From contig CAKPPF010000001.1 of assembly GCA_934177485.1 (NCBI GenBank), positions 256,618 to 320,617 of the forward strand: a stretch of DNA of 64,000 nt, given 5' to 3'. The translations under genes were made by a program, and so were the position numbers. Below, piece by piece: positions 716 to 61,057 of the stretch. The notes beneath the pieces were generated by a model. That model worked only from the letters and a program-made list of their open reading frames with translations, searched no databases and was not told the origin of the DNA. This stretch comes from an uncultured Clostridia bacterium. Its GTDB lineage: Bacteria; Bacillota; Clostridia; TANB77; CAG-508. Position 1 is the stretch's first letter. The number at the start of each line of letters is the position of its first letter.

Positions 716-853
716 ATATAGTAGGAAATTTCTCATTTCCTACTATATAAAAATAGCTAAACGCATGCCCTTTGAGATTTTCTCCTTTCAGTCGAAAACT
801 CAAATCGGGCGAGAACAAATCAAAGAAAAATTTTAAATTTTTCTTATTTGTTC

Positions 854-5364: not shown

Positions 5365-5386
5365 GATTAATAAGAAAAATTTAAAG

Positions 5387-5550
5387 ATGTAGGAGCAGGT
5401 CTTGTGCCTGCCCGCAGAAAGTGAAACGAAGTTTCACTTTTTTTATTATATAGAAAAAATGCTATAATCGCTATTGCCTTTGAGATTTCCTCATTTAATT
5501 CGGAAACTCAAATCGGCGAGAAGAAAAGTGTGGCGAAGCCACTTTTCTTA
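5387..5550. repeat. Composite intergenic repeat (palindrome module A plus hairpin module D)
   Basis: atgtaggaGCAGGtcttgtgCCTGCcc, then gctataatcgctattgcctttgagatttcc...ggaaactcaaatcggcgagaagaaaagtgtggcgaagccacttttctta. Near-identical copies occur at 15637-15730, 25333-25425 and 42030-42122. Confidence 0.85.
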
Positions 5551-5620: not shown

Positions 5621-8287
5621 ATGTGGGGTACTTTAGATGTTAAAGAAGTTCAAAGAAAACTTAGGACAAATATATATGGAGGGTTAACTGAAGAAGAGGT
5701 TCAAAATAGAAAAAAGCAGTTTGGAGCAAATAAACTAGAAGAAGGAAAAAAAGAAAGCTTATTCATTAAATTTATAAAACAGTTTAATGATTTTATGATT
5801 ATTACTCTAATTATTGCTTCTGGGATTTCTGCTGCTATATCATATATTCAAAAAACAAATGATTATATTGATTCAATAATAATAGTTGCAATAGTAATTT
5901 TAAATGCAACTGTTGGAGTTATACAAGAAAATAAAGCAGAAAAATCAATTGAGGCACTAAATAAACTTACAGCTCCAAAAGCAAAGGTTAAAAGAAATAA
6001 TATATTAAAAACAATAGATAGTAAAGAATTAGTACCAGGAGATGTTATTGTAGTAGAAACAGGAGATTATGTTCCTGCAGATTGTAGGCTAATTAATTCA
6101 TATAATTTAAAGGCAGAAGAATCGGCTTTAACTGGAGAAAATTTACCAGTATCAAAAGATGCTAATTGTATTATAGGCGAAAATGTGGCTGTTGGAGATA
6201 TGCAGAATTTAATTTTTGCAACAACAATGATTGTAAATGGACATGCAGAAGCAATTGTAACTGAAACAGGAATGAATACTAAAGTTGGAAAAATAGCCGG
6301 TATGATAATAAAAGATGAAGCGCCAGAAACTCCTCTTCAAAAAAGACTAGGGGATGTTGGAAAGAAACTTGGAATAGTTGCTTTATTAATTTGTGTGCTA
6401 ATATTTTTTATAGGAATAATAAAGAAAATACCTGTAATGGAGATTTTTATGACCTCTGTTGGACTTGCTGTTGCAGCTATACCAGAAGGCTTGCCAGCTG
6501 TTGTAACAATAATGTTATCTATTGGTGTTACAAAAATGGCTAAAAAGAATAGCATAATTAGAAAACTGCCAGCTGTTGAAACTTTAGGAAGTAGTAATGT
6601 TATATGTTCAGATAAAACAGGTACATTAACTCAAAATAAAATGAGAGTGGTAGAAATAATAGGATTAGATAGCAATCCACTTAGAAAAAAAGAAATATTA
6701 GAAATGGCATGCATGTGTACAGATTGCAGTATTAATTCTAGCACAAAAGAAGTGGATGGAGAAGCAACTGAAAAAGCAATTGTAGAAGCTGCTATGGAAG
6801 TTGGAATAGACAAAAATGAATTATATAGTAGAATGCATAGAATAAATGATATTCCATTTGATTCTGAAAGAAAAATGATGACAACAATACATAAAGTTGG
6901 AAATAAATATAGAGTTATAACTAAAGGGGCTCCTGAAGTTTTACTTAAAAGATGCGATAAATATTTAGAGAAAAATAGAGAATTGAATATTACAAGTACC
7001 AATATTCAAAAGGCTAGTCTATTTAATGAACAGATGGCAGAGAAAGCATTAAGAGTTATTGCTGTGGCTTATAAGGATTTGGAAGAATTGCCAGACAATA
7101 TAAATACTAATATAGAAAAAAATTTAACATTTGTTGGGTTAATAGGAATGATAGATCCTCCAAGAGATGGTGTAAAAGAAGCAATAAGTATTTGCAAGCA
7201 TGCAGGAATAAAAACAGTTATGATAACGGGTGACCATATTTTAACAGCTAAGGCTATAGCAGGTAAATTAGGCATATTAAAAACAGGAGATTTAGCAATT
7301 ACAGGAAAAGATCTTGACGAAATACCAAATGAAGAATTTGAAAAAAACATAATGAGATATTCTGTATTTGCAAGAGTATCCCCAGAACATAAAGTAAAAA
7401 TTGTAAAAGCTTTTAGAAAAAATGGAAATGTTGTTGCAATGACCGGTGATGGGGTAAATGATGCACCTGCATTGAAAAATGCAGATATAGGAATTGCAAT
7501 GGGAAAAACAGGCACAGATGTTGCAAAAAATGCATCAGATATGATTTTGGCAGATGATAATTTTGTAACAATAGTTGAAGCTGTAAAAGAAGGAAGACAC
7601 ATTTATGATAACATAAAAAAAGCTGTGCACTTTTTACTTGCAACTAATATAGGAGAAATTGTTGCAATATTTGTAGGTCTACTTATGGGATTAGATACTC
7701 CACTTTTGGCAATACAACTATTATGGATAAATTTAGTTACAGACTCTTTGCCTGCAATTGCCTTAGGATTAGAACCAATAGATAAAAATATTATGAATAA
7801 AAAACCTAAAAAATCAAATGAAAGTTTTTTTGCAGGCGGATTATGGGGAAGCATTTTTGTTGAGGGAATGATGATAGGAATATTAACCTTGTTTGCATTT
7901 GCAATAGGAAATAATAAATATGGAATTGAAGTTGGCAGAACAATGGCTTTCTTTACTTTAAGTGCATTAGAATTAGTTCACAGTATTAATGTTAGAAGTG
8001 ATGAATCAATATTTAAAATAGGTATATTTAGTAATATATATCTTGTTGGAGCATTTATTATAGGGATAATGTTACAATTTTTAGTAATTGCTATACCAGG
8101 CTTAGCAACAATATTTGAATCAGTTCCATTAAATTTAACTCAGTGGTTATATGTTGCAATAATTTCAATTTTACCATTTATAATAATTGAAATTCAGAAG
8201 AAAATAAATGAATTTAAATTTGGAAAAGTGGTATATTCAACTAGAGAACTGTTTGATGCTAAGCAAAAGACTTCTAATAAATGTTGA
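5621..8287 (+). CDS. Cation-translocating P2-type ATPase (SERCA/PMCA-like Ca2+ ATPase)
   Basis: 'CSDKTGTLTQN', 'TGDH', 'MTGDGVNDAPALK', a 'PEGLP' TM4 motif and 10 predicted TM segments. Confidence 0.85.
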   Translation: MWGTLDVKEVQRKLRTNIYGGLTEEEVQNRKKQFGANKLEEGKKESLFIKFIKQFNDFMIITLIIASGISAAISYIQKTNDYIDSIIIVAIVILNATVGVIQENKAEKSIEALNKLTAPKAKVKRNNILKTIDSKELVPGDVIVVETGDYVPADCRLINSYNLKAEESALTGENLPVSKDANCIIGENVAVGDMQNLIFATTMIVNGHAEAIVTETGMNTKVGKIAGMIIKDEAPETPLQKRLGDVGKKLGIVALLICVLIFFIGIIKKIPVMEIFMTSVGLAVAAIPEGLPAVVTIMLSIGVTKMAKKNSIIRKLPAVETLGSSNVICSDKTGTLTQNKMRVVEIIGLDSNPLRKKEILEMACMCTDCSINSSTKEVDGEATEKAIVEAAMEVGIDKNELYSRMHRINDIPFDSERKMMTTIHKVGNKYRVITKGAPEVLLKRCDKYLEKNRELNITSTNIQKASLFNEQMAEKALRVIAVAYKDLEELPDNINTNIEKNLTFVGLIGMIDPPRDGVKEAISICKHAGIKTVMITGDHILTAKAIAGKLGILKTGDLAITGKDLDEIPNEEFEKNIMRYSVFARVSPEHKVKIVKAFRKNGNVVAMTGDGVNDAPALKNADIGIAMGKTGTDVAKNASDMILADDNFVTIVEAVKEGRHIYDNIKKAVHFLLATNIGEIVAIFVGLLMGLDTPLLAIQLLWINLVTDSLPAIALGLEPIDKNIMNKKPKKSNESFFAGGLWGSIFVEGMMIGILTLFAFAIGNNKYGIEVGRTMAFFTLSALELVHSINVRSDESIFKIGIFSNIYLVGAFIIGIMLQFLVIAIPGLATIFESVPLNLTQWLYVAIISILPFIIIEIQKKINEFKFGKVVYSTRELFDAKQKTSNKC

Positions 8288-9811: not shown

Positions 9812-10926
9812 GAGATATAGGAATATATGTACATATACCATTTTGTGTAAAAAAATGTGATTATTGTGATTTTACATCGTTTGGCAATGTGAAAGAAGAA
9901 ATTATTTATAATTATATTAAGGAATTAAATAATAATATAAAAGAGGAATTAACCAAAGAAAAATATGATGCAAAGACTGTATATTTTGGTGGTGGAACAC
10001 CTTCATATATTAATTCAAATTATATTGTGGAAATACTAAATACAATAAAACAAAATAGTATTATTGATAAAAATGCTGAAATAACAATAGAAGTAAATCC
10101 AGGAACTGTTACAAAAGAAAAATTACAACAATACAAAAATGCAGGAATTAATAGGTTAAGCATAGGACTACAGGAAACACATAATAATTTATTAAAAAGC
10201 ATAGGAAGAATACATAGTTATGAAGACTTTTTAAGTACATATAATTTAGCTAGAGAAACAGGTTTTAACAACATTAATGTGGATTTAATTATTGGTTTGC
10301 CTAAGCAAAGTATACAAGATATAAAGGAAAATTTAGAAAAAATTATAAATTTAAAACCAGAACACATAAGTGTATACTCACTTATTTTAGAAGAAAACAC
10401 GGTTTTATATAATAAGTATCAAAATGGTGGAATAGAACTTCCAAGTGATATACAAGAAAGAAACATGTACTGGTATGTAAAAAACACTTTAGAAAATAAT
10501 GGATTCAAACACTATGAAATTTCTAATTTTTCAAGACCTGGACTTGAATCAAAGCATAATACAGATTGTTGGAAACAAAAAGAATATTTGGGATTTGGAT
10601 TGTCTGCTCATTCATATATAGATGGAAAAAGATATTCAAATGAAATGGATGAAAAAAATATAATATATAAATTTAAAAAAGTAATTCATGAAGAACAAGA
10701 TACAGAGAGTATGAAAAAAGAATATATGCTTCTTGGATTAAGAATGATAGATGGAGTGAGTATTAGAGAATTTAAAAATAAATTTAGTGATAATCCAATT
10801 TTTATATTTAGAAAAGAACTAGAAAAATTGGTAAATGAACAACTTCTAAAAATAGATGGAGATAGAATAAAATTAACTAATAAGGGATTGGACTTGGCAA
10901 ATATAGTATGGGAAGAATTTATATAA
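9808..10926 (+). CDS. hemW: Radical-SAM heme chaperone HemW (coproporphyrinogen III oxidase-like)
   Basis: 'CVKKCDYCDF' CxxxCxxC cluster motif, 'GGGTPS', and the HemN_C-like tail. Confidence 0.85.
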   Translation: MRDIGIYVHIPFCVKKCDYCDFTSFGNVKEEIIYNYIKELNNNIKEELTKEKYDAKTVYFGGGTPSYINSNYIVEILNTIKQNSIIDKNAEITIEVNPGTVTKEKLQQYKNAGINRLSIGLQETHNNLLKSIGRIHSYEDFLSTYNLARETGFNNINVDLIIGLPKQSIQDIKENLEKIINLKPEHISVYSLILEENTVLYNKYQNGGIELPSDIQERNMYWYVKNTLENNGFKHYEISNFSRPGLESKHNTDCWKQKEYLGFGLSAHSYIDGKRYSNEMDEKNIIYKFKKVIHEEQDTESMKKEYMLLGLRMIDGVSIREFKNKFSDNPIFIFRKELEKLVNEQLLKIDGDRIKLTNKGLDLANIVWEEFI

Positions 10927-11065
10927 AAGAGAAAGAAATATACTTGAAAATGGCATGTGAAAGATAAGCTAAATTTATTGACATTTTACTTAAATAAATA
11001 TATACTAATTACGAAATATATACGGAAGAAAAAGTTATAGGATTAATAATAAAATAGGAGTAATT

Positions 11066-12466
11066 ATGAAAATAAAAAATAAAATAGTAACTATATCAAT
11101 AATATCATTTATAATAACCGTAATATTTGGAATAAAAACATTTGCAACTACTGGAACAATTACAGAAATTACTGTTAATGTAAGGCAAAAGCCATCAACA
11201 GATTCTAAAAGAATAATGTATGTAACTCAAGATGAAAAAGTTGAAGTTCTAGAAAAAGATGGCGATTGGTATAAAATAGAGGCAAAGGGAAAAACAGGCT
11301 ATGTATTTGGAGAATATGTAAATGTTGATGATTCAGAACTTACTGACAAATCTGAAGAAGATGATGAAAATGAGGAAACTTCTAATAATGAGGAAGTAGT
11401 AAATGAAACAAGCAATAATGATGTAAATGAGAGTAATGCAACAAATAATGAACTAAATCCTAACTCAAAATTATATTTAGAATCTGAAACAGATGTTAAA
11501 ATAATACCTAATATCTCATCATCAAGTGTAAATAAAACAAATGAAAAAACAGAAATACAACTATTTGAACAACTAGGAAATTGGTCATATATTATGATTA
11601 ATGGTAGAAATGGATGGGTAAGAACAGATAAAATAATAGAGGAAAAAGAACAAACAGATAATAGAGAAAACAATGAAAAAAGCGAAGAAGATACAACGCA
11701 AAAAGATAATCAAGCAGAAAAAAATGATGACTCAAAAGCAGAAAATAAAAAAGCATATATTAAATACAATACAGTTAACTTAAGGAAGAAAGCATCTGCT
11801 ACTTCTACTGTTCTTGCAAAACTAAAAATAAATGATGAAGTAACAATTCTAGAAAAAACTAATTCAGTATGGACCAAAGTAGAAATAGACGGAAAAACAG
11901 GATATGTTTCTAATGACTTATTATCTACGGAAAAACAAAATGTTGCAGAAGAAAAGGAAGAAACAGCTACTTCAAGAAGTGGTGAATCAACTTCAAGAGA
12001 ATCAGATGACGAAGAAGAACAAGTTGAAGAAAAAGAAGAGGAAAAAAGTAGCGTAGAAGAGAAGAGTTCTTCAAATACTTCAATTACAGGTACAAGTGTA
12101 GTTGAGTATGCTAAAAAGTTTTTAGGATATAAATATGTATATGGTGGAACATCACCAGAAAAAGGTTTTGATTGCTCAGGTTTTACAAGCTATGTGTATA
12201 AAAACTTTGGCTATAATTTATCAAGATCATCTAGTGCACAAGCAAATAATGGAACTAAAGTTGAAAAAAGTGATATAAAACCTGGTGATATACTTATTTT
12301 TAAAAATCAAGCATTAACAAGAATTGGGCATGTAGGAATTTATATAGGAAATAATAAAATGATTCATGCTTCTGAACCTGGTGTTGGAGTTACAATTACA
12401 GATTTAGATGCAAAAGGTTATAATTATAATAAAAGATATGTTATGGCAAGAAGAATAATTAAATAA
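11066..12466 (+). CDS. Secreted SH3b-repeat / NlpC-P60 (C40) cell-wall peptidase
   Basis: Signal or anchor sequence, three 'VNVR..PS..S..' SH3b-like modules separated by acidic linkers, and C-terminal 'FDCSGFTSYVY...GHVGIY'. Confidence 0.85.
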   Translation: MKIKNKIVTISIISFIITVIFGIKTFATTGTITEITVNVRQKPSTDSKRIMYVTQDEKVEVLEKDGDWYKIEAKGKTGYVFGEYVNVDDSELTDKSEEDDENEETSNNEEVVNETSNNDVNESNATNNELNPNSKLYLESETDVKIIPNISSSSVNKTNEKTEIQLFEQLGNWSYIMINGRNGWVRTDKIIEEKEQTDNRENNEKSEEDTTQKDNQAEKNDDSKAENKKAYIKYNTVNLRKKASATSTVLAKLKINDEVTILEKTNSVWTKVEIDGKTGYVSNDLLSTEKQNVAEEKEETATSRSGESTSRESDDEEEQVEEKEEEKSSVEEKSSSNTSITGTSVVEYAKKFLGYKYVYGGTSPEKGFDCSGFTSYVYKNFGYNLSRSSSAQANNGTKVEKSDIKPGDILIFKNQALTRIGHVGIYIGNNKMIHASEPGVGVTITDLDAKGYNYNKRYVMARRIIK

Positions 12467-14943: not shown

Positions 14944-15516
14944 ATGAAAAAAGTTGTAATTATAATAAGTGCAATTATAATTATTCTATTAGGAATATTT
15001 ATAGGAGTAAAAATTAATAATAAAGAACCACAAAGTAATACTTTAAATAATAATATTAAAACAACAGAAATAAACCAGAATATGAATACTTTAGTTACTG
15101 AAGTATCAAAGCCAGAAGAAAAAACTACACCTAATACTTTATTAATTTATAAAATATATTACACTAAGTGTAAACATTATATAAAAAATTACAATGAAAT
15201 AGATGCATCTTTAGTTAATTTAACTCAAAAAGAATTTAAGGATAAGTTTAAAGGCTGGAAAATAGAGAGATTTTCGCCAGAAGAGGTTGAAATTTCAAAA
15301 GAAGAAGAGAGATTTTGTAATGAACATTATAAATTGAAACTTGAAGATAATATTATTGTAATTTATAATATAAATGAAAATGGAAGAGAAACAGAATATG
15401 AGAGGACAGATATTACAACAGAATACTTAACACAAGAAGATATTTTAAAATTAAGAAATGGAATAATAGTCTTTGGAAAAGAAAACTTGACAAGTACAAT
15501 TGAAGATTATGAATAA
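14944..15516 (+). CDS. Membrane-anchored hypothetical protein (possibly a BofC-like C-terminal domain)
   Basis: N-terminal TM segment. The C-terminal 'IIVIYNINENG...LRNGIIVFGKENL' weakly resembles BofC_C. Confidence 0.4.
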   Translation: MKKVVIIISAIIIILLGIFIGVKINNKEPQSNTLNNNIKTTEINQNMNTLVTEVSKPEEKTTPNTLLIYKIYYTKCKHYIKNYNEIDASLVNLTQKEFKDKFKGWKIERFSPEEVEISKEEERFCNEHYKLKLEDNIIVIYNINENGRETEYERTDITTEYLTQEDILKLRNGIIVFGKENLTSTIEDYE

Positions 15517-15543
15517 TAAAAAGAATATAAATTGAAAAAATTT

Positions 15544-15730
15544 ACGGGCAGGTTTTATACCTGCCCGTAAAAAGTGAAACTGCGTTTTACTTTTGTTCTT
15601 GAATAGGAAAAATCGAAGATTTTTCTATTCAACAAAATATGCTATAATCGCTATTGCCTTTGAGATTTCCTCATTTAATTCGGAAACTCAAATCGGCGAG
15701 AAGAAAAGTGTGGCGAAGCCACTTTTCTTA
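15544..15730. repeat. Composite intergenic repeat (modules A-variant, E and D)
   Basis: acGGGCAGGttttataCCTGCCCgt, then ttgaataggaaaaatcgaagatttttctattcaa, then the module D string identical to 5458-5550. It ends on the pgsA stop codon. Confidence 0.85.
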
Positions 15731-16294
15731 TTTATTTATTATTTCATTCATTTTTAAAGTTTCTTTTTTAAAATAGCCTTTTACATAGAATTCTCTAAAA
15801 TACATTACAAGAGAAAATAGTGTCATTACTAATGCCATGTAATATATTATCATACCAATTGAATTATTAATTTCTAGAGCTTTAAAAAGCATTGAAATGA
15901 TTATTGCAAGGTAAAACAACACTGTAGCAGCTTTACCATACCATTTACTAGATACAACTAATTCTTTTCCATAAAGAAATGATGCACCAGCTACCATAGC
16001 AGCTTCTTTTATTAAAACAACAACTAAAATCCATAAAGGAATAATATTTTTTACAGTTAATGTCCCTAAAATAGATATTTGTGTTACCTTATCTGCTAAG
16101 GGGTCAATTAGTTTTCCAAAGTTTGTAATAAAATTATATTTTCTTGCAATTGCTCCATCTAGTACATCTGTTAAACCTGAAAGTGCTATTATAACTATTG
16201 CAGCTAAATATTCATCAGTTACTAAAAAGTAAATTGCAAAAGGTATTAAGAAAAATCTTAAAACCGTAAGAATATTTGGAATGTATTTTGCCAT
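15728..16294 (-). CDS. pgsA: CDP-diacylglycerol--glycerol-3-phosphate 3-phosphatidyltransferase
   Basis: CDP-alcohol phosphotransferase motif 'DGAIARKYNFITNFGKLIDPLADK'. The start is moved to the ATG preceded by GGAGG. Confidence 0.85.
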   Translation of the reverse strand: MAKYIPNILTVLRFFLIPFAIYFLVTDEYLAAIVIIALSGLTDVLDGAIARKYNFITNFGKLIDPLADKVTQISILGTLTVKNIIPLWILVVVLIKEAAMVAGASFLYGKELVVSSKWYGKAATVLFYLAIIISMLFKALEINNSIGMIIYYMALVMTLFSLVMYFREFYVKGYFKKETLKMNEIINK

Positions 16295-20741: not shown

Positions 20742-20810
20742 TTAAGCAAAGTGATTTTATGCTACTATAGAAAAAATCGAAAAATTTTTTGAGCATACTA
20801 AGTATTGTAA

Positions 20811-20871
20811 GTGCAGGTCTTGTGCCTGCCAGAAATATAAGATAGATAAATAATAATAAAATTATCTATCT
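20811..20871. repeat. Repeat modules A and B
   Basis: gtGCAGGtcttgtgCCTGCc (20811-20830), then hairpin agatagataaat...attatctatct (20840-20871). Confidence 0.7.
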
Positions 20872-21115
20872 ATTTTTATATAATAGAAGAAAATGAGAAA
20901 TATTAAAAAGCTAGAATTTTATTCTAGCTTTAAAAATAAAAGGGGATGTTTGTAGCAAATAGATTTTACTATCATATTTACTATGCTATTAATATACCAA
21001 CTAAATATGACTATTGTGTGAACAAAAAGAGTTTTTATAATGAAAAAATAGCAACTTGGAGTTGCTATTTTTTACAGACTGTTGACAAAGTATATAAAAA
21101 TATTTTGTTCAAGTA

Positions 21116-21144
21116 TTGCAGATGCAGGTCTTGTACCTGCCCGA
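21116..21144. repeat. Repeat module A just 3' of the htrA stop
   Basis: attgcagatGCAGGtcttgtaCCTGCcc. Confidence 0.75.
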
Positions 21145-21153
21145 AATAATTCA

Positions 21154-25190: not shown

Positions 25191-25531
25191 GTGATGTGTA
25201 TGGACAGGTCTTGTGCCTGACTAAAAGAAAAATTGGAAATTTTTCTTAGTTATTCTATAGTATGAAAAAGCAAGGAAACCTTGCTTTTTTTTGTTGAATA
25301 GGAAAAATCAAAGATTTTTCTATTCAACAAAAAATGCTATAATCGCTATTGCCTTTGAGATTTCCTCATTTCATTCGGAAACTCAAATCGGCAAGAAGAA
25401 AAGTGTGGCGAAGCCACTTTTCTTATTATATAGTAAAAATCGAAGATTTTTACTATATAACAAGGTTAAGTTACCTTAGGCAGTGCATATTTGCGAAGCA
25501 AAATGCACATGTGGCGAAGCCACTTTTCTTA
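25191..25531. repeat. Composite intergenic repeat (modules A, E and D, plus an extra D-tail)
   Basis: ggACAGGtcttgtgCCTGac, then ttgttgaataggaaaaatcaaagatttttctattcaacaa, then module D (25333-25425), then a second gtggcgaagccacttttctta (25511-25531). Confidence 0.8.
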
Positions 25532-30202: not shown

Positions 30203-30350
30203 TTAAGTTATTTTATGAAAACAACAGAAAAAATATTATTAAGAACAATGGCACTTTAGTAGAATATGAAGAATATATATTAAGAAGATTATAAATAATT
30301 AGATATTTCGCATATTATGTGAGTTTTATTATTAATATAAAAAATAGATA

Positions 30351-30467
30351 AAAAGATGCGTTCTAATACAATTATCATACGAATACGATTAAACAAATGT
30401 AATCATATTGAGGCTTTGCTTTATGCCCAAAGTCTCAATAGAAGAACGTGCAATGGAACTTGAATAG
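30351..30467 (+). repeat. Left direct repeat of the island: duplicated spoIIID leader plus a truncated 14-codon 5' fragment
   Basis: The 112 nt at 30351-30462 align without gaps to 41632-41743 with 10 mismatches by hand count. ATG 30423 reads MPKVSIEERAMELE and then TAG. Confidence 0.85.
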
Positions 30468-49735: not shown

Positions 49736-49841
49736 GTAGAAATTATAAAAAATTCCTAGAATATAGGAATTTTTTTTTGTTCCTATAATATATTTTACTA
49801 TATAATTTATAAATTATATATACATAGCAAGGAGGTTTAAT

Positions 49842-51395: not shown

Positions 51396-51423
51396 AATGT
51401 AAAGAGCAAACAATTAAGTTTGC

Positions 51424-51556
51424 TCTTTAATATAGTAAGAAATTTCTCATTTTTACTATATTAAAATTAGCCAAACGCATGTCCTTTGAGTTCTTTAACT
51501 GTAAAGAGAAAATCTTAGAAACAATAGCGATTATAGCATTTTTTTGAATAGAAAAT
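51424..51556. repeat. Composite or partial repeat (module C, partial D', inverted D head, partial E)
   Basis: atatagtaagaaatttctcatttttactatatt, then ttagccaaacgcatgtcctttgag, then aacaatagcgattatagcatt (reverse of the module D head). Confidence 0.6.
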
Positions 51557-52456: not shown

Positions 52457-52867
52457 ATGGACAATTTAGAACAAAAAGTTGATAAAATTCTTGAAAAGCA
52501 AAACATAATGCAAAAAAACATGCTTGGTATTCAAAACAGTGAAATTAATATAATATCAACTCAAAAAGATATGTTAAAGACACAATTTGAAATGCAAAAC
52601 AATATTAATAAGATGCAAAATAATATATGTGAAATGCAAAACAATATTAATAAAATGCAACATAGTATAAAAAAATTAGACACTAAAATAGATGCTCAGT
52701 ATAAAGAATTGAATAGCAAAATTGATACTCAATACAGCAAAATTGATAAAAAGCTGGAGGCTAACATATATGATATTTCGGAAATGTTTAGAGACTTATA
52801 TAAGCATATTGATAAAGATACATATAAAGAAAATGACAGAAACCTAAAACTTTTAAAGAAAAAATAA
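52457..52867 (+). CDS. Hypothetical coiled-coil protein with MQNNINK repeats
   Basis: 136-aa ORF with an AAGGAGG RBS and the degenerate heptad-like repeats 'EMQNNINKMQNNICEMQNNINKMQH'. Confidence 0.5.
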   Translation: MDNLEQKVDKILEKQNIMQKNMLGIQNSEINIISTQKDMLKTQFEMQNNINKMQNNICEMQNNINKMQHSIKKLDTKIDAQYKELNSKIDTQYSKIDKKLEANIYDISEMFRDLYKHIDKDTYKENDRNLKLLKKK

Positions 52868-52974: not shown

Positions 52975-53004
52975 CCTGTTGTAGGGCAGGTCTTGTGCCT
53001 GCCC
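52975..53004. repeat. Repeat module A
   Basis: cctgttgtagGGCAGGtcttgtgCCTGCCc. Confidence 0.8.
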
Positions 53005-53118
53005 AATATTACAAAACATTACCTAATAACAAGCTACTTTTATTCTTTTGTTACATTTATTGACATATAATTACAATATGGTATAATTGTAGAGAAAATA
53101 ACATATAATGGTGAAAAA

Positions 53119-55888: not shown

Positions 55889-57775
<1,887 letters not shown>

Positions 57776-57782
57776 TTAAGTT

Positions 57783-57804
57783 GGGGCGGATCTTGTGTCC
57801 GCCC
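57783..57804. repeat. Repeat module A variant in the dnaK-dnaJ spacer
   Basis: GGGGCGGAtcttgtgTCCGCCC. Confidence 0.7.
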
Positions 57805-57825
57805 ACATACATATTGGAGGAAAAA

Positions 57826-59040: not shown

Positions 59041-59241
59041 GGTAGGCACAAGACCTATCACTACATGCCTGCCCAAAAGATAGATGAATTTATTATTATT
59101 CATCTATCTTTTTAATATAATAGGAAATTTCTTATTTCCTATTATATTAAAATGGCTAAACGCATGACCTTTGAGATTTTTTCCTTTTAGTCGAAAACTC
59201 AAACCGGGCAAGAACAAAGAGCGACATGAAGTCACTTGTTC
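59041..59241. repeat. Composite intergenic repeat (inverted module A, then B, C and D')
   Basis: ggtaggcacaagacctatcactacatgcctgccc, then agatagatgaat...attcatctatct, then ataataggaaatttcttatttcctattat, then module D'. Confidence 0.8.
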
Positions 59242-59603: not shown

Positions 59604-60875
59604 ATGAAACTAAAATTTAAAACAAAAAATTCAAATCAACCTATATGTTTTAAAAATAAAAACGAACATGTAGGGGCAGGTCTTGTGCCCGCCCACAATA
59701 GAGGTATAACTCTAGTTGCTTTAATAATAACAATAATTTTATTATTGATATTAGCAGTAGTAGCAATAACATCAATAAGTAACAACAATATAATAAAACA
59801 CGCACAAAATGCAGGAAAAACTTACACTGAGGAAAAAGAAAAAGAAAAAATATCATTAGCAATGCAAGAAGCCCTATTAGAAGAAAATGGAACAGTTACT
59901 CAAGAGGGAATAACAAAAGTAATGAATACGTACTTTACAAACAGTGGCTGGAAAATAATATCATCAGATGATAAAATTATGACAATACAAATAACATCAT
60001 CAGGAAGACAATATAAAATAACATTAGGTTCAGGAAAAATAGAAACTGTAACAGAAGGAAAAAACACAGGAAGTTGGGTAAATAATGGAAATGGAACCTT
60101 TACAAAAGATGGTACAACAGTAGAAATAGGAAAAACAACATACACAAACGAAGAAGTGCAAAAAAAATTAGGAGGAACAGGAGGAACATATAAAGGAACA
60201 TGGACAGTAATAGGGGTAGAAGAAGATAAATTAAAACTAGTCTCAACAAAAACAGTAGGAAGTGTTATACTTGGATGCAATGACCCAGGAGCAATTGCAG
60301 CAATTACAGTTGCAAATGAAGATTCGATTACAGATGAAGAAAAGGCAGAAAGAAGTATATGGTCATATAAAAATGCAATTACTACATTAAATACCAATGC
60401 ACAAGAAGAAACAGGAATTGCAAGTGCAAGAAGTATGGCATTGGAAGATATATACGGAATAATAGGTGAGGATGGAGTAACTAAAAAATCATGGGCTGGA
60501 ACATACGGAGCAGAATATACTTTTAATTATTCAAATGCCAAAGACAAAATACTTATAGATGAAAATGGAGAAACAGTAAAAATAGATACAGCCGAAAAAG
60601 AGGTAACATTGAAAAATACATACTTTGAATATGAACTTACAACTGAACAAAAAGAAGTAATAGAAAGTTTTTTATCTGATAGCCTTTATTGGTTGGCTTC
60701 ATGTGCAGTTGTTTGTGGTATTTCATCAAACCCGGGAGATGCAGTGTATCATGTTCTACAAATGAACCATGGTGAAATTAGTGGATACCCAAAAACTTTG
60801 GGAATATATAATACGTTTGGAAGCCAATATGAATGGACGGCTGGTGTGGCAGTACGTGCTGTGATATACATGTAG
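59604..60875 (+). CDS. Pilin/pseudopilin-like secreted protein with an N-terminal hydrophobic helix
   Basis: AAGGAGG RBS. 'RGITLVALIITIILLLILAVVAITSI' resembles a prepilin-type leader and helix (Ala rather than Glu at +5), followed by a Thr/Gly-rich globular domain. Confidence 0.5.
   Translation: MKLKFKTKNSNQPICFKNKNEHVGAGLVPAHNRGITLVALIITIILLLILAVVAITSISNNNIIKHAQNAGKTYTEEKEKEKISLAMQEALLEENGTVTQEGITKVMNTYFTNSGWKIISSDDKIMTIQITSSGRQYKITLGSGKIETVTEGKNTGSWVNNGNGTFTKDGTTVEIGKTTYTNEEVQKKLGGTGGTYKGTWTVIGVEEDKLKLVSTKTVGSVILGCNDPGAIAAITVANEDSITDEEKAERSIWSYKNAITTLNTNAQEETGIASARSMALEDIYGIIGEDGVTKKSWAGTYGAEYTFNYSNAKDKILIDENGETVKIDTAEKEVTLKNTYFEYELTTEQKEVIESFLSDSLYWLASCAVVCGISSNPGDAVYHVLQMNHGEISGYPKTLGIYNTFGSQYEWTAGVAVRAVIYM
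59667..59696 (+). repeat. Repeat module A embedded in frame inside the 59604-60875 CDS
   Basis: catgtagGGGCAGGtcttgtgCCCGCCCac, translated as HVGAGLVPAH. Confidence 0.85.
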
Positions 60876-60975: not shown

Positions 60976-61057
60976 AGATAGATGAATAATAATAAATTCA
61001 TCTATCTTTTATTATATGGGCTGAACGGGTCACAAGACCTACCCCTACATGCCTGCC
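60976..61057. repeat. Repeat modules B and inverted A
   Basis: agatagatgaataataataaattcatctatct (60976-61007), then gaacgggtcacaagacctacccctacatgcctgcc (61023-61057). Confidence 0.75.

Follow-up and report, generated by a model that had tools for sequence, protein, structure and literature searches.

The repeat at positions 15599 to 15730 of the window, by which we mean the whole 64,000-nucleotide stretch of DNA that was analyzed, is one copy of an insertion unit of ~132-137 nt. The recurring hairpin modules that a first-pass annotation had named E or C and D or D' are, respectively, the left and right parts of this one unit. We hold it to be highly probable that the family is a mobile interspersed element at all. 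The reading that we favor, and that we consider probable rather than firm, is that the unit is a new non-autonomous, terminator-docking mobile element of low-GC gut Clostridia, which probably docks via single-stranded hairpins. The unit may, in addition, carry a small RNA gene, as modeled from its promoter-like and structural features.

Architecture of the unit at 15.6 kb

Comparison of filled alleles (L002-L005) with empty ones (L006-L008) places the complete plus-strand unit, consisting of E and D, at 15599..15730 (132 nt), with a 'TT' ambiguity at the junction that allows the alternative frame 15601-15732. Module E had been reported to start at 15595, but that copy begins gttcttgaatagg, the first four bases of which belong to the host. 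The unit opens with hairpin 1 (module E, 15599..15632, plus strand, ttgaataggaaaaatc-gaa-gatttttctattcaa), an AT-rich palindrome that is long and nearly perfect and has an A-run behind it. At its head, the conserved core carries TGcTATAAT, an extended -10-like box (15640..15648, plus strand), after which comes hairpin 2 with its base extension (15655..15698, plus strand; 90.6 bits with covariance model R1). Hairpin 2 reads TGCC-TTTGAG-a-TTTCC / loop tcatttaattc / GGAAA-CTCAAA-tc-GGCG and carries CCUC in its loop region. Hairpin 3 (15701..15729, plus strand, AAGAAAA-gt-GTGGC gaa GCCAC TTTTCTT), which a terminator scan recognized on both strands, ends in a T-rich tail that forms the right end of the unit, with the boundary at 15730. 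At 15.7 kb, this hairpin coincides with the new stop codon of a convergent gene. The 204-nt region folds much better than its own shuffles, with z = -7.6 on the plus strand and -8.2 on the minus strand. Two short resemblances should also be mentioned. The 3' arm of hairpin 1, ACTTCCTAGTATATA, is similar to the XerC half-site of Bacillus dif, the other dif half being absent by eye, and AGGAAAT is similar to a sigma-H -35 box, with the matching -10 absent by eye.

Immediately to the left of the unit lies a host terminator-like hairpin with a T-rich tail (aaagtgaaactgcgttttacttttgttc, 15572..15598, plus strand), which is the docking site and is kept in the empty alleles. Next to it, the module A palindrome (tttacgggcaggttttatacctgcccgtaaa, 15541..15571, to which strand does not apply) is a REP-like repeat that is also found in the empty alleles and is outside the unit. 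Module A corresponds to family D4 of our repeat search, carries a GTAG-like 5' tag and varies between strains by itself. Modules A and B look like separate repeats that gather in the same gaps, although this is established for A only. Module B is a terminator-like AT-rich hairpin repeat found on the plus strand at 59078..59109 and also at 20840-20871 and 60976-61007.

Conservation of structure among copies

From left to right, a unit comprises hairpin 1, which is long and AT-rich, the conserved core of 70 nt and hairpin 3, which resembles a terminator. The core is composed of a GCTAyAAT box and a covarying stem-loop with CCUC or CUCC in the loop. The interior is conserved far above the ends. 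In hairpin 1, the sequence is variable while pairing is kept, with the A-run behind it. Among 34 distinct copies, outer stem positions 1-7 are Watson-Crick paired in 91-100% and the T-run:A-run positions 8-10 in 82-94%; three to four pair types are seen at several positions, such that AT, CG and GC interchange with mismatches being nearly nil. Paired cells make up 95.7% of hairpin 2, vs 89.4% in shuffles. The invariance of its outer stem is in part imposed by the pattern with which copies were gathered. Both the base and the top of hairpin 2 covary, with three pairs altered on both sides (UA/CG 45:43, GC/CG 50:28 and UG/GC/UA), and one strain allele presents a G:C flip. The analysis of covariation that the first-pass annotation had proposed thus gives a positive answer. 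Hairpin 3 varies in sequence yet is always terminator-like, with both strands qualifying in the terminator scan.

The strand on which these structures operate was also considered. Hairpin 3 folds better on the plus strand by 1.3 kcal/mol, hairpin 1 is symmetric and for the core the minus strand has a slight advantage. The wobble count in hairpin 2 (29 G-U vs 24 A-C) does not differ clearly between strands. As there is no clear wobble asymmetry and the core is slightly better on the minus strand, an RNA structure and a DNA structure are indistinguishable here.

Copies in the window

A census of the window with the covariance model revealed seven plus-strand cores (748, 5455, 15635, 25330, 42027, 44811 and 59147; 62-95 bits, E 1e-14 to 7e-24) and one on the minus strand (51474-51543, 39 bits), the next-best matches reaching at most 17.5 bits. 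An independent repeat search yielded the same families, namely D2 (5411/15591/25286/41983) and D3 (704/51418/59103). All of the module copies that had been listed earlier are present, within a few bases of where they had been placed. The D copies at 5458 and 15637, described as identical by eye, agree at 93 of 94 aligned positions, the one gap lying at the 5' edge. Identity with these two is 97-98% for the D copy at 25333 and 88-89% for that at 42030. Pairwise identities are 67-76% among D' copies, 86-95% among E copies, 73-86% among C copies and 79-91% among B copies. What had been described as a grammar of reusable modules results mostly from nesting and is to that extent an artefact, since E or C on the left and D or D' on the right make up the one ~135-nt unit.

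The copies differ in completeness and context. The plus-strand unit at 717..853 (C and D', 137 nt; empty alleles L123, L129 and L130; ambiguity of 1 nt, 'T') has the T-tract of the upstream gene's terminator on one side and, on the other, the -35 TTGACA of an arsR-type gene. The plus-strand unit at 5444..5549 (106 nt; empty allele L126) contains only D, hairpin 1 having been mostly deleted, and its site holds two other mosaics, one in L123/L129 and one in L130. The E and D unit at 25293..25425 (plus strand, 94.5 bits) lies directly 3' of the terminator gcaaggaaaccttgc and T8, and is adjoined at 25426..25530 (plus strand) by an element that resembles a unit, in which hairpin 3 is the same and hairpin 1 is a variant, but the interior is unrelated. 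This interior was considered as a second family and rejected, being confined to this single locus in the sequences compared. Another E and D unit (41990..42122, plus strand) is found directly 3' of the spoIIID terminator in all strains sampled, in a decayed form in L143 and partly deleted in L142. A degenerate D' unit (44776..44918, plus strand, 62 bits) lies downstream of a ParE-type toxin gene. At 51418..51545, a head-to-head chimera, to which strand does not apply, combines a plus-strand hairpin 1 and D' head with an inverted D head, the two heads being joined via hairpin 2; the inverted head noted earlier at 51520-51545 is hence confirmed by the minus-strand match given above. Finally, the unit at 59112..59241 (plus strand, 65 bits), made of C, a D' head and a third type of tail, lies directly 3' of the module B hairpin at 59078..59109, which is its docking hairpin.

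Mobility, junctions and target choice

Exact empty sites were found in sister strains for three window copies (15599-15730, 717-853 and about 5444-5549), and one site, that of rubrerythrin, presents three different mosaics and one empty allele across strains, such that the suggested presence or absence polymorphism is indeed seen. At 25.2 kb and 59.6 kb, no polymorphism was found in the strains compared. One precise insertion next to a terminator removed three codons from a gene. Copies recombine with one another, which yields mosaics, and units are also found at rearrangement breakpoints (e.g., L001).

At the three exactly mapped insertions, comparison of filled and empty alleles revealed no terminal inverted repeats and no target-site duplication, with only a 1-2 nt T ambiguity. 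The exact unit ends, ttgaatagg...cacttttctta and tatagtagg...cttatttgttc, show no mutual complementarity. Units are positioned right 3' of a host hairpin and T-tract or of the tail of another unit, and in tandems the second unit begins directly past the GTTC or TCTT tail of the first. Left flanks differ among units (TTTTTT, GTTC and TCTTG). The 46 nt found 5' of units have a median folding energy of -7.5 kcal/mol vs -2.6 in controls. In the copies listed, the hairpin and T-run directly abut hairpin 1, and the T-run can pair with the A-run of the unit, the T-run:A-run positions being paired in 82-94% of copies.

Enzyme-free spread, in which replication switches template between terminators and the tail of the unit mimics the target, could produce several of these features. 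A stalled nascent strand would realign on the T-tract of a donor, copy the unit up to its hairpin-plus-T tail and return. Indeed, the left junction is always at the end of a T-tract, the right end is itself a hairpin with a T-rich tail, junction microhomology is limited to T or TT, units follow each other's tails, mosaics and a strand-switch chimera through hairpin 2 exist, and no transposase was found nearby. By eye, the host tails ACTTTTGTTC and CACTTTTTT (sites 1 and 3) also resemble the unit tail CACTTTTCTT. However, the idea that the tail is a copy of the target terminator, or is selected through homology with it, suggested by eye at three sites, was rejected, as 77 units show no excess similarity between the upstream terminator and their own tail (7.68 vs 7.43 +/- 0.22 when permuted). 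Moreover, 5-8 nt of T is generally scant homology for switching between distant loci, and neither the extreme conservation of the core nor the structure of hairpin 1 is explained. We thus regard template switching as quite unlikely.

Host range, neighboring genes and the search for a parent element

Covariance-model matches number 120 in 766 kb, all of them intergenic, including the eight core copies in the 64 kb of the window. Unit sizes are 106-137 nt and no ORF contains any copy. In a genome scan, the family was found in ~50 low-GC "uncultured Clostridia" gut MAGs and also in Clostridium sp. CAG:452, so that a placement in Fusobacterium, which the GC content of 26% had suggested, was rejected. 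The core in one of the loci (L035) scores 94 bits, while the PrmC, WhiA and HemN proteins are only 51-59% identical to those of the window.

Searches for a mobilizing parent were negative within the sequences covered. No transposase or recurrent gene was found within ~4 kb of units and no TnpA/TnpB was seen near them, the recurring families among 690 clustered ORFs from the loci were housekeeping only, and neither a Pfam transposase nor a RAYT gene was found among the window ORFs tested. No parent IS with the same ends was seen, whether in the ~4 kb around units, elsewhere in the window, or among phages and plasmids. A blastn search against 50,697 phage records and 72,556 plasmid records gave no match, and of seven pattern matches in IMG/VR only one is real, with a context like an ordinary chromosome. 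An origin as a classical MITE (MITEs had been suggested), or as pieces of a single known phage, plasmid or insertion sequence, would be in line with the small size, non-coding nature, many copies and intergenic location of the units. With neither inverted repeats nor target duplication at the three mapped insertions, no phage or plasmid match apart from the one true IMG/VR hit and no transposase in the two sets just given (~4 kb surroundings and tested window ORFs), this explanation is extremely unlikely. The first-pass annotation had held that its proposal would fall if there were no additional copies elsewhere in the genome or if the copies proved to be fragments of one known IS. Neither was observed, additional copies being numerous and none of them, in the sequences searched, turning out to be a piece of a known IS.

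The neighborhood of the units also bears on the suggestion that they are portable cis-regulatory cassettes, acting as a promoter, leader, attenuator or insulator that controls the downstream gene or ends the flanking genes. In 78 of 107 cases, unit and downstream gene point the same way. Hairpin 3 resembles a terminator on either strand and at 15.7 kb sits at the stop codon of the convergent gene, and the L110 core precedes a hairpin, a GGGAGGAG ribosome-binding site and ATG. Nonetheless, co-orientation is no more frequent than expected from ordinary gene-strand bias, and no gene family is enriched beside units, with 105 Pfam families represented downstream and 114 on the upstream side. Between the unit and the arsR-type gene, a TTGACA-17-TACAAT promoter belonging to that gene is retained, which the empty allele has as well, and the 15.6-kb copy lacks a co-oriented downstream gene. 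A cassette of this kind is therefore very unlikely.

Promoter-like box and small-RNA features

TAnnnT is found in 90 of 107 distinct cores (84%) and TGn in 45 of 107, with TG missing in 58%. No -35 accompanies the -10-like box, and a consensus promoter scan leaves the box uncalled. Subfamilies in which the box is degraded (GCTAAA, TGAAAT) multiplied regardless, indicating that a promoter is dispensable for spread. The loop region contains CCTC or CTCC in 66% of cores, and UUUUCUCCUUUU, the loop of D', complements AAAAGGAGAAAA exactly. Rfam gave no match at gathering thresholds over the whole window, permissive matches being at chance level, and the best sub-threshold match at 15500-15760 scored 24.7 bits vs a threshold of 50.

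Such features could be understood if the units were a host-beneficial, multicopy small-RNA gene family, the copy number of which is changed by ordinary recombination and not by a mobility mechanism of its own. Every unit would then be a functional gene with a -10 box, a 5' stem-loop and an intrinsic terminator. The anti-Shine-Dalgarno-like loop would pair with ribosome-binding sites, and the RNA would be kept by purifying selection. The interior is more conserved than the ends, which is the reverse of what is expected for a transposase-bound element, and the core hardly changes between hosts the proteins of which share 51-59% identity. The frequent box and loop motifs described above, the compensatory changes in hairpin 2 and a terminator located exactly at the 3' end, somewhat stabler on the plus strand, all point in the same direction. 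On the other hand, this explanation does not account for hairpin 1, the pairing of which is under strong selection although it lies 5' of the putative start. Precise terminator-adjacent insertions at unrelated loci resemble transposition, subfamilies with a spoiled -10 box multiplied, and neither a -35 nor an Rfam match was found. We hence consider a small-RNA gene family of this kind rather unlikely.

Proposed mechanism

Returning to the favored reading of a terminator-docking mobile element, its movement can be modeled by analogy with the HUH/Y1 enzymes of IS200/IS605 and REP-RAYT. A trans-acting HUH/Y1-like enzyme would recognize folded single-stranded DNA hairpins and move the unit, while the A-run beside hairpin 1 would select T-tracts through pairing. 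This is offered tentatively, as a mechanism distinctly short of probable. Several observations weigh against the favored reading and should be kept in mind: the mobilizing enzyme and an autonomous parent were not found in the searches described above, hairpins 1 and 3 are dissimilar, unlike the left and right hairpins of IS200/IS605, and the left flank is a T-run or T-rich tail rather than a fixed tetra- or pentanucleotide.

After insertion, the core would be transcribed from the -10-like box, yielding a ~75-nt product with a 5' stem-loop that presents the anti-Shine-Dalgarno-like loop, followed by the terminator, and hairpin 3 would double as a bidirectional terminator for adjacent genes. That both of these predictions hold jointly is, in our view, somewhat short of probable. 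In a stronger version, which we deem unlikely, the unit would be a self-contained mobile small-RNA gene that docks 3' of terminators and is resident in a deep clade. It would combine the -10 box, a 5' stem-loop mimicking the 16S anti-Shine-Dalgarno and a terminator, and would copy itself 3' of intrinsic terminators through hairpin-guided docking and pairing of the A-run with the T-tract, needing neither inverted repeats nor target duplication. If true, this would be a long-term 'resident' RNA-encoding mobile element, similar to the REPIN-RAYT partnership but with an RNA payload, with a nearly unchanged core kept through a deep clade of reduced-genome gut Clostridia.

Small interspersed repeats are widespread in bacteria, and the features of the unit make both their mode of movement and their effect testable. 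Exact boundaries, a target at the end of a T-tract, the lack of inverted repeats and of target duplication, and an interior that is better conserved than the ends among hosts with proteins only about half identical together point either to an unrecognized hairpin-reading mobilization system in these Clostridia or to a mobile RNA gene. By extrapolation, units take up roughly 1-2% of these intergenic-poor genomes of ~1.6 Mb. They shift the stop codons and terminators of neighboring genes and mark rearrangement breakpoints. Several contigs end inside units, which thus break metagenome assemblies, and units could be used as strain markers for a clade without cultured members.

Comparison with known systems

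REP, BIME and REPIN sequences are palindromes outside genes, often near gene 3' ends, without inverted terminal repeats or target duplication. REPs are single palindromes of 20-40 nt that are species-specific and co-evolve with RAYT, and they probably move as folded single-stranded DNA through the action of the single-copy, domesticated RAYT (Y1 HUH). The mosaic clusters formed by units are similar to BIMEs. A conserved 5' tetranucleotide and a length of 20-40 nt, as in REPs, fit module A, REP-like with its GTAG-like 5' tag, and do not fit the 132-137-nt unit, which at ~135 nt comprises three different hairpins and a core conserved at ~50% host protein identity. IS200/IS605 elements also have no terminal inverted repeats or target duplication. 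They have a hairpin at or near each end, and their strand-specific insertion takes place 3' of a T-rich target, which is short and is selected through pairing with the bases beside the hairpin. The pairing of A-run and T-run in the unit is analogous and the end features are shared with IS200/IS605 and PATE elements, whereas the end hairpins of the unit are dissimilar, any T-tract that follows a hairpin serves as the target instead of one fixed 4-5-nt word, and it is the interior that is conserved rather than the ends.

Class C group II introns home just 3' of the stem-loops of intrinsic terminators, with the DNA hairpin being recognized. They are, however, ribozymes that measure ~700-2000 nt or more and encode a reverse transcriptase, such that only the choice of target is shared; as the unit is only 132 nt long and no Rfam intron was matched in the window, it is not a group II intron. 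The streptococcal csRNAs, an example of the multicopy anti-Shine-Dalgarno small RNAs of Firmicutes, have their motif between stems and a CiaR-dependent promoter, and are not known to be mobile or terminator-docked. The core, as a predicted RNA, shares with them several copies, a length of 70-100 nt, two stem-loops, an anti-Shine-Dalgarno motif and a terminator, but differs in having the motif in a loop and in being terminator-docked and mobile.

Correia elements (NEMIS) of Neisseria are proteobacterial intergenic repeats of ~100-150 bp that can provide promoters, terminators and RNase III sites to neighbors and have 26-bp terminal inverted repeats and a TA duplication. Units are likewise abundant and intergenic but lack both end features. 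The proposed BOX/RUP/Correia-style mosaic holds in the broad sense of a dispersed and recently active repeat, while the family is not a classical MITE. [quoted passage not shown] 2011, PMC3049150). Units share with these repeats their small size, AT-richness, multicopy and non-coding nature, intergenic location, stem-loops, clustering and strand bias, but not the inverted repeats or the target duplication of BOX and RUP. SPRITE is one duplex of ~18 bp that has AAAA/TTTT at its termini and a long U-rich tract behind it, and is enriched by gene 3' ends (PMC3049150). Compared by description only, hairpin 1 with its T- and A-run flanks and hairpin 3 are similar to SPRITE, as is the location of units 3' of genes. 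Nonetheless, a unit comprises three hairpins, with a deeply conserved middle part, as opposed to one hairpin, and empty sites are known for units and not for SPRITE. From all of these pneumococcal repeats, the units differ in both host clade and sequence.

Repeat copies and anatomy of the unit

The window has a GC content of about 26%, with nearly all genes on the plus strand. All of the repeats listed in the first-pass annotation are present to within a few bases, and a de novo repeat search of the window recovered the same families independently. The D copies at 5458 and 15637 are identical at 93 of 94 aligned positions, the copy at 25333 is 97–98% identical to these two and the copy at 42030 is 88–89% identical. 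Among the other modules, pairwise identities are 67–76% for D', 86–95% for E, 73–86% for C and 79–91% for the terminator-like hairpin B. No Rfam match was obtained in the whole window at gathering thresholds, nor in 15500–15760 at permissive thresholds.

The kind of system proposed in that annotation, an interspersed repeat with structured modules, holds up, while its freely combined module grammar collapses to one unit plus unrelated neighbours. The unit starts at its 5' end with hairpin 1 (module E or C), a 15–20 bp stem built around TAGGAAA...TTTCCTA. This is followed by an A-run, the box GCTAyAATCGCTA and hairpin 2, which has TGCC/GCCC, TTTGAG, a bulged A and TTTyC on its 5' side, an 11-nt loop, TC(C/A)TTnnA(G/T)TC, and GrAAA, CTCAAA, tc and GGCG/GGGC on its 3' side. 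A short linker (GAGAAC or GAGAAG) leads to hairpin 3, of which there are at least three sequence types. In all of them the 5' arm is A-rich, the top is rich in G+C and the 3' arm, where the unit ends, is T-rich. A terminator scan scored hairpin 3 as terminator-like on both strands.

Two further hairpins should be mentioned here. A small terminator hairpin, AAAGTGAAAC-nnn-GTTTCACTTTT, repeatedly adjoins module A palindromes on their 3' side (5417–5444, 15572–15598) and is also found in the YqeY to LDcluster4 spacer of two sister-strain loci (L126, L130). Its outer stem and GAA loop are similar to hairpin 3 of the D unit, AAAAGTGTGGC-GAA-GCCACTTTT, and together with module A it may form a further composite repeat. 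A lone palindrome resembling hairpin 1 (atataggaa-tttttttttg-ttcctataat) lies at 49764–49785, upstream of a SipL-like gene and with no core nearby, and could be either a relic or a separate hairpin.

Filled and empty alleles

The exact protein encoded just upstream of the main copy (14944–15516) was looked up in public assemblies, yielding sister strains with and without the element. At 15599–15730, four loci (L002–L005) are the same as the window, while three (L006–L008) lack exactly 132 nt, with a two-base 'TT' ambiguity at the junction. The empty allele still has palindrome A and the small hairpin at 15572–15594, which thus belong to the host or to other repeats. As the 132 nt are missing as one block while these two stay, E and D are one insertion and not two modules. 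The unit was inserted in the last codons of a convergent CDP-alcohol phosphatidyltransferase gene, the product of which has 188 residues with the unit and 191 without. The last three bases of the unit (15728–15730; compare L006 3644–3646), read on the opposite strand, supply the new stop, and hairpin 3 directly follows this stop on the minus strand.

A C + D' unit at 717–853 (137 nt, one 'T' ambiguous) is absent in three sister strains (L123, L129, L130), where the terminator T-tract abuts the TTGACA-17-TACAAT promoter of an arsR-type gene. Downstream of the rubrerythrin gene, L126 has an empty site and L124 the window's truncated D (about 5444–5549, 106 nt). The unit at this site in L123 and L129 is complete, combining a C-type hairpin 1 and a D head with a different tail; in L130, a C hairpin and a D' head are combined with a D tail. 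Presence/absence polymorphism in close relatives, one of the checks proposed at first pass, was thus found at three window sites. Neither terminal inverted repeats nor a target duplication was seen at any of the three mapped insertions, and the MITE option that had been raised therefore fails in the strict sense. The family is a non-autonomous element that is now or was recently mobile, docks at terminators and lacks DDE-type MITE hallmarks. No transposase was found among the window ORFs tested.

Copies also decay and recombine. In L142, 66 nt were lost between two ATAAT words, thereby removing hairpin 1, and in L143 hairpin 2 is unpaired. Most of hairpin 1 is missing from the window copy at 5444, 51418–51545 is a head-to-head chimera joined through hairpin 2, and at 25426–25530 hairpins 1 and 3 enclose an unrelated interior. 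In L001, the start of another hairpin 1 follows from the unit's last base onward (L001 3785–3860) and the next gene is a DUF1836 gene in place of the phosphatidyltransferase gene; this locus is a rearrangement breakpoint exactly at the unit boundary.

Other variable features

Module A, the palindrome GGGCAGGTCTTGTGCCTGCCC, often preceded by GTAG or GTAA, is strain-polymorphic independently of the unit. It is found at 5384–5416, 15537–15569, 20802–20834, 21113–21145, 25193–25225, 52975–53007, 57775–57807 and 59665–59697, and in L130 at 7426–7520 and 2428–2668. L130 has a 33-nt copy with AATAA on both sides, none being found at the same place in L123, and an inverted doublet inside a 157-nt insertion. 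Module A is REP/REPIN-like, and a RAYT-type gene would thus be predicted somewhere in the genome.

The segment 29235–41644 (about 12.4 kb) is absent in L142, L143, L146 and L149, where an Mbeg1-like gene lies directly upstream of spoIIID. It carries a TrbL-like ORF and a 2112-aa ORF (32281–38619) and, near its left end (30327–30476), an 87–88% identical copy of the spoIIID upstream region and first codons; it looks like an integrated conjugative-type element just upstream of spoIIID. Within the 2112-aa ORF, five tandem repeats at 36282–37943 (312-nt period, one spacing of 426 nt, 71–90% identical) suggest a repetitive surface-type protein. Between the HemN-like and SH3/NlpC-P60 genes, where the window has only a 139-nt spacer (10907–11070 versus L123 16107–16896), L123 and L129 carry one more gene, which encodes a 229-aa protein of the purine/uridine phosphorylase family (PNP_UDP_1). 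A tandem 42-nt duplication (52585–52668, 90% identical) lies in a 136-aa ORF (52457–52867) with weak Pfam matches of coiled-coil type only.

Distribution and target site

A pattern scan of a species-representative genome collection yielded at least 114 loci. About 85% of the matches listed are low-GC gut MAGs named "uncultured Clostridia bacterium" or "Clostridium sp.", plus Clostridium sp. CAG:452; among the matches listed, MAG sources include Hadza and Nepali people, rabbits and mice, and there are complete chromosomes of 1.55–1.70 Mb. The remaining matches listed (Nitrospira, Chryseobacterium, Acidobacteriota and others) are presumed to be chance, as conserved flanks are missing. The phage (50,697) and plasmid (72,556) records gave no match, and in IMG/VR only one of seven pattern matches was a true copy. 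PrmC, WhiA and HemN of the window are 51–59% identical to those of L035, a locus from another genome, the core of which nonetheless scores 94 bits with R1, our covariance model of the 70-nt core. AspRS is 73–87% identical among other loci.

R1 detected 8 copies in the window (64 kb); with the loci added, 766 kb in total, the count is 120, and all of these are intergenic. By extrapolation, the window's species would have about 100–200 copies per genome if the window density held genome-wide; the other genomes sampled have a lower density. Several metagenome and Logan contigs end inside the unit after spoIIID (L146–L149, locus positions 844–863; ...gctataatcgctatt, ...cctttgaga, ...cctcattt), as would happen if short-read assemblies break at the repeat.

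Neighbouring genes run in the direction of the unit in 82 of 102 cases on the upstream side and in 78 of 107 on the downstream side, about as predicted from gene-strand bias alone. Neighbours (105 downstream and 114 upstream Pfam families) showed no enrichment that would point to a regulon, the functions being ordinary housekeeping or sporulation ones throughout, and a search for a partner gene by clustering 690 ORFs from the loci gave housekeeping families only (P-type ATPases, AspRS and ParA among them). Sequence upstream of hairpin 1 (46 nt) has a median folding energy of -7.5 kcal/mol, versus -2.6 for randomly placed controls. The copies listed show a host hairpin and T-run that stop where hairpin 1 starts, and this T-run can pair with the A-run of the unit in 82–94% of copies. 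Units also directly follow another unit's tail (...ctttgttc/tatagtagg... in L048, L052 and L015; ...cttttctta/ttgaatagg... in L138). Taken together, the host hairpins and these tail-to-head units define the target as a hairpin followed by a T-rich run, which is also what the unit has at its own 3' end.

Conserved structure

Folding and covariation of the modules, also proposed at first pass, bore out the expected structure. The 204 nt of 15537–15740 fold far better than shuffles (z = -7.6 and -8.2 on the two strands), and hairpins 1 and 2 show compensatory pair changes. In hairpin 2, the outer stem of which was set by the search pattern used to collect copies, 95.7% of cells are paired, compared with 89.4% in column shuffles and at most 59% with partners slid. 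Three pairs are altered on both sides (UA/CG 45:43, GC/CG 50:28, UG/GC/UA), and the L123 allele has an additional C:G to G:C flip. As the two pair states follow the D and D' subfamilies, few independent events are represented.

In 34 distinct copies, seven outer-stem positions of hairpin 1 outside TAGGAAA are 91–100% Watson-Crick and three T-run:A-run positions are 82–94%, with G-T or A-C pairs almost absent. Several positions have three or four pair types (e.g., AT 17, CG 10, GC 5), and the stem top varies with compensation (GTTC/GAAC, GTCC/GGAC, AATC/GATT). Since pairing is kept while the sequence varies, hairpin 1 is a structure that a single strand forms, not a fixed protein operator. Its location upstream of the sole promoter-like box speaks for a function as single-stranded DNA or within an RNA that starts elsewhere. 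Strand comparisons meant to tell RNA from DNA point in no single direction: wobble counts in hairpin 2 are 29 for G-U and 24 for A-C, and folding energies are alike on the two strands for hairpin 1, slightly favour the minus strand for the core and favour the plus strand by 1.3 kcal/mol for hairpin 3.

Possible mode of spread and possible transcript

IS200/IS605 and REP-RAYT elements are thought to move as folded single-stranded DNA via HUH/Y1 enzymes. Compensated hairpins, pairing of T-run with A-run, strand-specific placement and insertions with neither inverted repeats nor duplications make such mobilisation the best fit here, and we tentatively suggest, at clearly less than even confidence, that folded single-stranded unit DNA may have been moved by a putative trans-acting enzyme of HUH/Y1 type. 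Enzyme-free spread by template switching between terminators would account for the unit boundaries and mosaics, but it does not explain the conserved core and a permutation test of tail-target homology was not in its favour; we regard it as unlikely.

As to a possible RNA function, the conserved core may act as a small transcription unit for a putative RNA, a reading that we hold at somewhat below even. Its transcript might start near the base of hairpin 2: 84% of distinct cores have a TAnnnT box and 42% have TG in front of it, the loop region has CCUC or CUCC in 66% (that of D' is the exact complement of AAAAGGAGAAAA) and a terminator lies downstream. However, no -35 was found, and the box is spoiled in subfamilies that nevertheless multiplied.

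Comparison with known elements

A description of the family was found neither in Rfam 15 nor by full-text literature search. It appears to be a new variant among bacterial small interspersed repeats, with a putative mobilising activity and RNA product; its interest lies in precise terminator docking combined with an interior that stays conserved although the hosts are far apart. Some traits of the unit recur in REP/BIME/REPIN, IS200/IS605 derivatives, Correia elements and class C group II introns, yet none of these groups agrees with it in every defining feature. Among described elements, the pneumococcal BOX, RUP and SPRITE repeats come nearest. Inverted repeats and target duplications are described for BOX and RUP (PMC3049150), whereas the unit has neither at the three mapped insertions. 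SPRITE consists of one terminator-like hairpin, and an empty site was not available for it (PMC3049150), whereas the unit has three hairpins and empty alleles in sister strains.
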